NCBI GenBank assembly: GCA_963678065.2
Contig: CAXXVZ010000003.1
Coordinates: forward strand, 576,001 to 640,000
Length of the DNA: 64,000 nucleotides
Direction: 5' to 3'
Source of the DNA: Treponemataceae bacterium
GTDB lineage: Bacteria > Spirochaetota > Spirochaetia > Treponematales > Rectinemataceae
Shown here in pieces: positions 24,001-27,000 of the stretch; position 1 is the first letter of the stretch, and the number at the start of each line of letters is the position of its first letter. A program made the position numbers.

Positions 24001-27000
24001 TTGTATCTGGTCCTGGTGACCTTGAGGCCGCGACAGCCCATCATGGCCAGTTCATCCACCATCGTGACGGGGTCGACTCCCAAGTCGATATAGCCGAAGG
24101 GGATGATCCTGTCAGGGTATCGGGCGTAGGCGGCCATCAGCTGCGAATTGGTTGCGGCCCTGCTGCCCCAAATCGGAATGCTCTGCATGGCGAGCAGGCA
24201 GACTTTGTCGATGCCCAAGCGGTCCATTTCCGCGACGATCTTGTCGACGTGATCCGGTTCACTCAACAGATGCACATGACAGTCTATTACCACGACAGTC
24301 TCCTTCTATTTCGGCGCGGAATTCCGCGTCGAGGGTATCATGCTGCAAGCATTCTTCAGAACGGCGATCTCTGCGCCGGGGCCGAGCCTGGCGCGAGCTT
24401 CATCGATGGCTTCGGACACGGTGAAAGATGATCGCAACCCCACACGTTTCAGAAGGTCGCGATCAAGACCGGGGGAGACAATCAAAAGCTCCCCCCGCTC
24501 CAGAATGCGCCCCAACGCAGCGAGGTGGCAGGCGATGGTGAGGTTCTCGAAACTGCCCTCGTTGACTCTACGGACTACCTCGGAATAGGGCAGATAGCCA
24601 GTCTTCATGATCTGCCGACCATGCGCGCCGAGTCCTTCCGGGCAGGGCGTTGCGAGGATGATTGTGCCGCCGGGCCGCACGACCAATTCGGCGACCGATA
24701 TCCCCTTGCACGCTTGCCACAGGTCGATATCGAAAGGGTAGGAATCTACCACTACGATATCCGCGCTCTGTACGGTCACTGAAGCCATCCGGCGGACTTC
24801 TTTGCACCCCTCCATGAATGCGGCCCATGGATCGCCTGCGAAAAAGCGATAGGGTCTGCCGTCTGTGCCGAGCACGACATTGAGGATGAAGCGCAAACCC
24901 GCTTTTTCGCCTATCGCATGCATCTCGCGCCTGATGGGATTATCCGCGATCCCGTAGAGTGCCTTTCCCTCACTGCTCCAGCCCCTCCAGTGCACTGAAG
25001 CGGTGATCTGTTCGCCGCAAATTCCCGGCTGTACCATTTTCGAACTTCCGGAAAAACCGGCGACACGATGAGGTTCAATGCAGCCGACGGCGATAATGAA
25101 GTCGTGTTCCCGCACCATCCTGTTCACGAGAACCGGCGTCCCATCCTCGGCCGCGCCCAGGGAAACCAGATTTTCCCTGTCGCAGGCGTTGTGGTTCACG
25201 ATCTTGACGCGGTTCACCGCAGCCTCTCCGAATCGATCCCGGATCTCTCTCGTATCCATCCCGCGATGCAGGCCGGTAGCGATCACTACGCAGATATCCT
25301 CTGACCTGATTCCTGACTCCCCGAGCGCGGAAAGCAGAGCTGGCAGTATGCGTCGCTGAGGCGTTGGGCGCGTCATATCGTCGACGAGAATAAGGACTTT
25401 TTTCGCCGATGAGTCGCGCAACATCGTAGCCAATGGAGGACAGCCCGCAGGCTTTTCCAGACAGTCCCGGACAGCTTCCTCCAGCGATTGGGATACGAGA
25501 GAAGTATGCTCTCCAGGCTCATATACGGTGCAGTTTGGCAGGGACTCTGTATCGAGCGCCTCAACCCACGGATAGGGAAAACGGTACATCAGAACCCTTC
25601 CCGCACCATCTGGCGGAAGATATCCTCTATTTTACCGAGAGCCACATCGAGAATCTCCTTGCTGTGCGCCGAAGTGATGCCGGAGTGCATGGGAGTCAAG
25701 CCGTCGCCATAGTCATGGAAGTACATGCCACTGCCTGTAGCGAGCTCGACGAATCTCCGAGCGGATTTTGGCCGGTAGAAACTGGCCGCTTCGCGGTAGT
25801 CATACGTCGCGTGATCCAAACCGAAAAAGAGTCCAAAGCGTGCCCCAAGACCAAGGAGGATCCCCTTGAGGCCAGTACTGGAGAAGAGCACGTTCACTCT
25901 TTCGTAGAAATAGTTGGCATTGAAGTTCAATCGCTCATAGAAACCAGGCTGATCCAGTACTTTCAAACCGGCGAGCCCTGCCATGACTCCCATAAGAGGG
26001 CCGGTATAGGTGCCGCTCATCACAACCGGTCCTATAGGGTTCAGGTGGCTCATCACTTCGTCCGATCCGGCCAAAGCGGCGATACCCATCCCGTTGCCCA
26101 GTACCTTGCCCAAGGTTGTCAGGTCAGGGGTTACGCCGTAATGCCCCTGAGCCGAACCGCGGCCCATGCGGAATCCTGACAGAACCTCGTCAAAGATAAG
26201 TACGATATTCTCTTTCTTCGTGATTTCACGCACCATCTGGAGGTAGGAAGGTCGCGGTTCAATGCAGCCTGCGTTGTACATGATCGGTTCCATGATGACA
26301 GCCGCGATTTCCCCCCGGTGGGCTTTGACAGTTCTTTCAAAAATTTCAATGTCGTTGAAAGGAATGACGATAAGAAGGTCATCCAGCTCAGGAACCATGC
26401 CTGCGGTGTCCCGTATTTTCTGTATCTCTCCGGACGATTCCACCGCTCCCAGTCTGTTGTGCCAGTTGTAAAATACAAATTCATGCATGCCATGGAAGTG
26501 GCCTTCAAACTTGATCACCTTGCGCCGGCCTGAATATTCGCGCGCCAGCCGCAGGGCCGCGAGGGTTGCCTCGGTTCCGGAATTGGCGAGTCGGACCTTC
26601 TGGGCGCAGGGAAGCATTGTGGATACCTGTTCGGCGAGTTCGGCGTGATAGGGTGATTCAAAATTGATGAAATATCCGAGCTCCAGACTTTTCTGCAGAG
26701 CCTCACGCATTGATGGATGATTGAACCCGAGGAGGGTAGCGCCGCTGCACGAGTGAAAATCGACCCACTCCCTGCCATCGACATCCTTCATGATGCAGCC
26801 GTCTGCCGACTCGAGGATGAGCGGTTTCTGAAGCACACGATGGTATCTGCCGCCTGCGGAGACGCCCCCAACCATGTAATTTTTTGCTTTCTGGAAAATG
26901 TCATCTGATCTCATGCAATACCTCGCTTTTGCGGGTGGCTATCCTTTGACAGCCCCTGCGGTAAGTCCTGCGATAATGTGGCGTTGTGTCAGAAAGGCTA

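Follow-up and report, generated by a model that had tools for sequence, protein, structure and literature searches.

LarA-family enzymes without larB, larC, or larE in a Rectinemataceae genome and its relatives, and candidate routes for scavenging the nickel-pincer cofactor

The 64,000-nucleotide stretch analyzed here (the window; coordinates without a contig name count from its first letter) comes from contig C3 of a Rectinemataceae genome, G000, and contains two genes of the lactate racemase (LarA) superfamily. Judged from its genes and from the names attached to their homologs, the organism would be a spirochaete. The first lies in an operon, and the features are as follows.

21450..22172, minus strand: GntR-family regulator (domain search)
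22389..23432, minus strand: URO-D/MtaA-like protein (domain search)
23460..24293, minus strand: Amidohydrolase_2 family protein, which also adjoins the LarA gene at loci L069 and L070
24306..25589, minus strand: LarA homolog of 427 aa, uncharacterized subfamily, loop H-R-V (ORF reading, Pfam, and alignment)
25589..26914, minus strand: class III aminotransferase (GSA-aminomutase-like; no cut-off reached), adjoining the LarA gene on its upstream side
26939..27766, minus strand: sugar-type ABC permease (read from sequence)
27776..28666, minus strand: sugar-type ABC permease (read from sequence)
28761..30053, minus strand: sugar-type solute-binding protein, the operon's first gene (domain search)
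30353..31162, plus strand: IclR-family regulator, divergent (domain search)
57945..59222, minus strand: second LarA homolog, LarAH18-type putative hexonate epimerase (NF052594, 559 bits versus a cut-off of 500)

The gene at 24306..25589 (hereafter, the window LarA) carries both the Lar_N (PF09861) and LarA_C (PF21113) domains in precomputed Pfam annotation, its closest solved relatives are LarA and Mar2 (E values of 1e-56 to 1e-48), and in alignment it retains the equivalents of D72, R75, H108, H174, K184, H200, and K298. By domains and residues, its product is a putative member of the nickel-pincer nucleotide (NPN)-dependent 2-hydroxyacid racemase/epimerase family. No named subfamily of the superfamily fits it, however: it reaches none of the NCBIfam subfamily cut-offs (best, 306 versus 500 bits, for malate racemase LarAH6, NF052593; 296.9 versus 460 bits for nickel-dependent lactate racemase, NF033504), its specificity positions read R, V, H, and L, and it has H and L at W358/T359, where LarAH6 calls for H/Q and K. 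Its own unnamed subfamily comprises roughly two dozen proteins at 42 to 64% identity. The aminotransferase also neighbors the LarA gene at L069 and L070 (65 to 66% identical). We use non-maker for a genome with LarA and without lar biosynthesis genes and maker for one that has them; the window LarA operon is present in non-maker G070 and, in part, in maker G069. Its solute-binding protein likely carries substrate rather than cofactor. Contigs from three RNA runs, all belonging to a single lake-water study, cover the window LarA gene at ∼99% identity, a weak sign of transcription and not proof; contig depth in these runs is unfit for ranking genes, and the thin cover past 30.2 kb is no finding. 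Behind the IclR regulator (31156-34227, plus strand) come a tandem pair of Fe-S proteins, weakly similar to reductive dehalogenase/QueG, and a weakly U32-like protein. In a DNA run, a short repeated element at ∼21307-21450 stands out by its roughly ninefold depth and numerous loose ends.

An earlier note from a genome-wide survey had counted eight LarA-superfamily enzymes in G000, and an iterated search of all six frames recovered eight ORFs, two of them in the window (Lar_N alone finds seven of the eight). Such multiplicity has precedent: the available text of PMC7583248 records up to eight copies per genome, and that of PMC11770544 gives an average of two or more for Spirochaetota. Five of the ORFs are canonical (C2:113k, C3:377k, C4:503k, C5:972k, and C3:600k, the window LarA). 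The second window homolog has its longest ORF starting at 59375 and a likely start near 59222. C2:9k belongs to NPN isomerase group 22 (NF052515, 527 bits versus a cut-off of 400), and C4:308k, also group-22-type, was recovered only by the iterated search, the NCBIfam scan having covered the others. Curated NCBIfam cut-offs are passed by two ORFs, the LarAH18-type gene and C2:9k. C3:377k adjoins malic enzyme and has H and K at the malate-racemase positions, yet scores 371 bits versus the NF052593 cut-off of 500, while C4:503k and C5:972k carry motifs in common with a group-2 entry in Dataset S2 of PMC7583248, as far as the accessible part of that source goes. The motif retention asserted by the survey also holds, in that R75, K184, H200, H108, and H174 are kept in all eight proteins (seven aligned, C4:308k read by eye); D72 and K298 are absent from the aligned group-22 protein. 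Near the second homolog, a 694-aa ORF and a radical-SAM-activase-like gene (51451-54324, minus strand) form a possible glycyl radical enzyme pair.

As had been claimed, none of the three biosynthesis genes was found in G000 with curated models, family-built profiles, or tblastn. LarB gave nothing over the cut-off (best, 16.6 bits, read as PurE), the curated LarC model had no match, and LarE reached 39.8 bits versus a cut-off of 150; controls in these searches gave the expected signal. The sub-cut-off LarE matches are, by names read from their sequences, TtcA-like, NAD synthetase, TilS, GMP synthase, and MnmA. Searches for divergent versions, with the family's own profiles, filters off, and tblastn, returned nothing better than an E value of 0.007. 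The assembly (99.94% complete, 6.72% contaminated) is in 5 contigs, no end of which matched elsewhere in the genome, so gaps remain.

The pattern of users without makers is real, genus-wide, and wider than the survey's note stated. That note gave Lar_N in 33 of 40 family genomes and LarB in 8 of these; the gap stands, and the figures differ now that all 69 have been searched. Lar_N is over the cut-off in 67 of the 69 and canonical LarA (E ≤ 1e-30) is present in 51, while LarB, LarC, and LarE are over the cut-off in the same 12 genomes, from 3 of 21 genera, where larBCE forms one operon with a CbiMQO-type nickel importer. All three biosynthesis genes are missing from 44 of the 51 genomes with canonical LarA, and 7 are makers; among 38 good-quality genomes, canonical LarA occurs in 29 and larBCE in 5 of those. 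Genera g17 (0/13) and g20 (0/8) contain no makers. Sampling 200 further genomes from the phylum (completeness of 97% or more) gave 21 with canonical LarA, 15 of them also with larB; larC was absent from all five tested of the six larB-less genomes, including the treponeme G245, whose assembly is a single contig and whose LarA scores 632 bits versus the lactate-racemase cut-off of 460. The NF033504 cut-off is passed by non-makers G245, G194, G040, and G027 (553 to 632 bits), and LarA of G047 scores 518 bits with malate racemase NF052593.

Relatives of the window gene show the same split. An alignment search yielded 61 loci; from the 59 selected, nine on short contigs (four spirochaete) were set aside, which left 50 for testing. 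A genome scan with the single window protein as the query gave no matches. Of the 50 genomes, larC is present in 38 and larB in a further two, which leaves 10 with neither gene: 6 of the 8 named spirochaetes and 4 of the remaining 42. In a Clostridia sample requested at a completeness of at least 99, in which many genomes are fragmented, scoring of 297 genomes placed canonical LarA in 73, of which 21 have no larB; larC, tested in 10 of the 21, was missing from seven, full in one, and degenerate in two. Most of the compared genomes are bins, and the genomes are related, so p-values overstate. Short LarC-like ORFs (∼190 to 200 aa) that look degenerate lie between a TPR gene and a pseudouridine synthase in two of the non-makers, at L343:1402-2013 (G379) and L345:1285-1845 (G338).

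Non-maker enzymes keep the catalytic site. D72, H108, K184, and H200 show no exception, either among 82 proteins of 61 non-maker genomes or among 61 proteins of 59 makers; K298 varies in seven non-maker proteins, and R75 and H174 vary in four of the 82 non-maker proteins only, all of the single-His type, a characterized member of which binds NPN according to the available portion of PMC12611868. This 143-protein alignment excludes the two group-22 ORFs and 20 GntE-type loci, the latter read separately. By a simple counting method, larA dN/dS is 0.044 to 0.271 across 22 non-maker pairs and 0.072 to 0.235 across 9 maker pairs (besides 8 saturated and 6 mixed pairs), and 10 non-maker pairs of the GntE type give 0.071 to 0.146. 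Makers and non-makers alike retain a malate-racemase-like ortholog adjoining malic enzyme, gap, and pgk, and orthologs from the two groups align with the same pocket. Because that ortholog and the window operon occur on both sides of the divide, the comparison points to supply at the level of the cell; with so many subfamilies keeping an unchanged nickel site in non-makers, supply would most simply be a property of the cell and not of the enzyme. At L032 to L040, a malate-racemase-like gene shares a conserved operon with a tripartite tricarboxylate transporter and aconitase-like leuC/leuD, an arrangement seen only in non-makers (7 genomes, 5 genera). The maker genera g6 and g19 (L166, L167, L168, and L169) have a GntE type with an FSGGHK loop, most non-makers having the MANHAK type.

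Neighbors of larA in Clostridia offer a candidate importer. We read 31 larA loci from 24 non-makers and 9 from makers; in three non-makers (G379, G432, and G212), with two LarA subfamilies, the gene immediately upstream of larA encodes an ECF S component, as it does at no maker locus. With a profile built from three seed S proteins, the S family was found in 19 of 21 larB-negative versus 13 of 52 larB-positive LarA-bearing Clostridia, or in 17 of 19 non-makers when two seed genomes are left out (Fisher p of 1e-6, an overstatement because kinship is ignored). The contrast with larB survives this seed removal, a stricter cut-off (15/21 non-makers versus 11/52 makers), and size matching (19/21 non-makers, 6/34 makers, and 22/58 genomes without canonical LarA). 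At least one S-positive maker is doubtful: in G331 the larB next to larC is shortened, and the contig carries no larE. The family also occurs in 27 of 80 Clostridia without canonical LarA (the first 80 of that group in order), and the S proteins of non-makers scatter across the tree (median identity, 46%). Like the ECF vitamin S components RibU, ThiT, FolT, and ThiW, the seeds exceed the PF12822 cut-off of 30.7 (58.8, 62.9, and 38.1 bits), and their nearest solved relatives are RibU (E values of 0.001 to 0.03). Unlike the named families, they fall below the cut-off of every named NCBIfam S family (16 to 27 bits versus cut-offs of 60 to 108 for ThiT, FolT, and ThiW), have invariant Met, His, Glu, and Arg, and are linked to larA, larC, and DUF3842.

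Metagenome loci add companions to the S gene. Among the best 80 of 553 such loci (34 groups at 90% identity), a uridine-kinase-like gene accompanies it in 14 groups, DUF3842 in 6, a domain without a Pfam match in 4, and larC without larB or larE nearby in 3; larA lies within 3.5 kb at none of the 80. The kinase is also within 1.5 kb of the S gene at 11 of the 27 loci from Clostridia without canonical LarA. PnuC/NadR is a transporter-plus-kinase salvage system, and the linkage of a nucleoside-type kinase to the S gene resembles it. On this pattern, the unnamed ECF S component is a likely NPN carrier in Clostridia. Counting against that role, the family is common where canonical LarA is absent, its metagenome loci have no larA neighbor, and it was not found in non-makers G000, G040, G049, G245, G218, G301, G581, and G612. 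Other genes at these loci deserve mention: a ∼170-aa domain (YPxMQxxDxxKLxYQ) with no Pfam or NCBIfam match lies, alone or kinase-fused, beside the S gene (L330:4378-4899 and L269:4026-5090); a DUF362 Fe-S gene is directly upstream of the S component at L337:4119-5779 (G371); and larC, alone or with a shortened larB, adjoins an iron/B12-type ABC binding protein at L344/L352 (G533) and L353 (G331).

All 10 family loci and all 3 further loci from the order have DUF3842 at the head or flank of the larBCE operon, which ties the S module to NPN; DUF3842 was seen at 0 of 20 lar loci outside the order. In G249 and G242 it abuts larE, and no nickel transporter was seen in 16 kb. Its model (pLDDT 94) has a generic Rossmann-like fold with no clear relative (best Z score, 9.4), from which no function follows, and in the literature searched it turned up in one unrelated paper. 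The single DUF3842 of G000 heads an operon outside the window.

C4:428025-431004: four-gene operon of DUF3842, an atypical ZnuA-like binding protein, an ATPase, and a permease

This DUF3842-ABC operon is also present in non-makers G040, G045, G047, G049, and G028; DUF3842 was found in 5 of 10 non-maker spirochaetes tested and not in G061, G006, G019, G245, or G111. Gene order is DUF3842-cbiMQO-larE-larC-larB in makers and DUF3842-ABC in these non-makers (the ABC operon was searched in non-makers), which looks like a swap of synthesis for import. The binding protein (C4:429518-430285) resembles the cluster A-I metal-binding proteins ZnuA, MntC, FpvC, and TroA in fold (TM of ∼0.6; E values of 1e-11 to 1e-9), with a ZnuB-type permease alongside, but it is only 12 to 20% identical to them, and the position of their first His ligand, in DPHxYE, aligns to Pro. 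Two other His residues are invariant in 79 of 79 proteins. By the names given, its homologs are mostly spirochaete; a named carrier of the binding protein was not among the 120 listed of 1718 LarB homologs.

In G000 this operon adjoins cobalamin genes, and the genome has an Ech-type [NiFe] hydrogenase cluster and hypA/hypB (C4:206490-211260 and C3:1932654-1933699) and no CbiM that we could find, so a metal-ion role fits well; we put a plain nickel- or cobalt-ion importer at somewhat better than even and an NPN importer distinctly lower, as a tentative assignment. Neither PnuC nor CbiM was found in any of five genomes. G000 yielded neither the Clostridia kinase (best, 27.8 bits) nor the YPxM domain, and no cofactor-importer-like gene was found near spirochaete larA loci, where neighbor clustering gave only substrate genes.

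NPN is regarded as being synthesized by each cell that needs it. LarA users that are under selection and lack the synthesis genes present the pattern expected of scavenging. The reading that we favor, with a confidence slightly above evens, is that G000 loads its LarA enzymes with NPN or a dephosphorylated form from other microbes, likely via a dedicated importer. The survey's note had offered cofactor auxotrophy, with uptake of NPN or a precursor, or else another cofactor or route: uptake gains from an importer candidate that tracks the gap in Clostridia, though it is missing from G000, and another cofactor gains nothing, the nickel-binding His and tethering Lys being identical between makers and non-makers. 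Makers would release NPN through lysis or turnover, an importer would bring it into non-makers, as the riboside where a kinase is linked, and apo-LarA enzymes would load it unaided. In Clostridia, the likely importer would be the unnamed ECF S component (motif PMH[IL]PV), the linked uridine-kinase-like enzyme would phosphorylate the riboside again after import, and in genomes with a lone LarC that protein would put nickel back. Since most tested non-makers lack larC, the imported form should already hold nickel.

A parallel is PQQ scavenging through PqqU, in which users without synthesis genes are supplied by neighbors through an importer, the importer being a proposal in the case of NPN. PQQ enzymes are periplasmic, and PqqU is a TonB receptor of the outer membrane; NPN enzymes are presumed cytoplasmic and, unlike PQQ enzymes, would need an inner-membrane importer and perhaps a kinase. 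Such import by PQQ users is described in the available part of 10.1101/2024.06.04.597491. Supply from outside is also compatible with the chemistry, as the free cofactor survives 90°C for 10 min under anaerobic conditions and loads into apo-protein (PMC13524815, in the portion available), and most characterized LarA homologs were loaded with added NPN (PMC7583248, likewise). More speculatively, and at clearly less than even likelihood, NPN may be a traded vitamin with its own salvage: the Clostridia ECF S component would import the riboside, the kinase restore the nucleotide, and lone LarC repair demetallated cofactor, while spirochaetes would use the divergent ZnuA-like ABC transporter and DUF3842 would complete the lar set as its missing fourth protein, a carrier common to the operons for synthesis and for salvage.

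Among the alternatives, the one that survives best, though we judge it unlikely, is that non-makers synthesize NPN themselves through an undescribed pathway whose enzymes have no sequence relationship to LarB, LarC, and LarE. Residue conservation and purifying selection fit it equally well, G000 handles nickel, and no importer common to all non-makers was found; nevertheless, larB, larC, and larE are lost as a block, so three steps would need replacing together, no candidate gene is enriched near larA, neither [NiFe] hydrogenase nor CbiM was seen in non-makers G040, G049, G061, and G245, and in Clostridia it is a transporter gene whose presence follows the gap.

We give still less weight to a nickel-free pyridine nucleotide (NMN or NaMN) performing the same hydride transfer. 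H200, the nickel ligand, and K184, the tether, never vary in the 82 non-maker proteins from many subfamilies, and orthologs of makers and non-makers share one pocket. The idea draws on the hydride going to C4 of the pyridinium ring (PMC11770544, available text), an atom that a plain nucleotide would also have, and on the LarAH18 type, common in non-makers, having a MANHAK loop for FSGGxK, with no assay of the group found in the literature searched. Against it, LarA in Escherichia coli without LarE and LarC was unlabeled, and the negative control had no activity, according to the part of PMC11796402 available.

That the genes are inactive relics, or are kept for a noncatalytic role, is quite improbable, and the survey's caveat to this effect gives way before a dN/dS far below 1 and intact catalytic residues. 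In favor of the idea, larA dN exceeds that of the adjoining gap and malic enzyme in several pairs, but maker pairs show the same excess. Contig cover of the window gene in RNA runs also leans against it, within the limit given above. So does gene content: the GntE-type gene beside uxaE is kept at 12 of 20 loci read, and UxuA, the bypass enzyme and the only mannonate dehydratase searched, was not found in 10 of the 12 non-makers concerned (uxaE had no match in G000). Least probable of all is a larBCE operon hidden in an assembly gap of G000. In its favor, the five contigs have unjoined ends, the operon is only ∼7 kb, and bins do lose parts (G081 and G082 have larB without larC), but 18 of 21 family genera have no maker, one-contig G245 and single-chromosome G111 also lack the genes, and such a gap could account for G000 alone and not for the pattern. 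With the absence lineage-wide and the genes under purifying selection, neither bin loss nor dead genes explain it.

For the selection data and the importer lead, no earlier report was found in the literature searched. A 2014 genome survey may already count larA-only genomes, so the bare gap may be in print. Our search, whose coverage did not extend to Desguin 2014 and a 2022 review, returned no report of larA without larBCE, of NPN uptake, or of the S family. Set against published LarA systems (L. plantarum LarA, Mar2, GntE2, and Sar), G000 has in common the fold family, the residues for catalysis and cofactor binding, and the catabolic settings of the genes. It lacks larB, larC, and larE, and the available portions of PMC7583248 and PMC11770544 discuss only the reverse gap, larBCE without larA.

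If NPN is indeed taken up from neighbors, between a fifth and four fifths of LarA-bearing anaerobes, depending on lineage, would rely on other microbes for it, an organometallic nickel cofactor would join B12 and PQQ as a community good, and communities of gut and sediment would depend on NPN makers for racemizing lactate, malate, and sugar acids. Searches for nickel enzymes anchored on larC miss non-makers. The orphan S component, the kinase, the domain without a Pfam match, and DUF3842 are specific objects for testing.

Outside the window, G000 also carries an hgcA-like gene and a ferredoxin behind a MarR regulator (C4:643633-645798); the gene contains NVWCAAGK, which we take to be the hgcA motif, making the organism a possible mercury methylator. 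A regulator similar to that MarR protein adjoins the lar operon in G012, G013, and G051.
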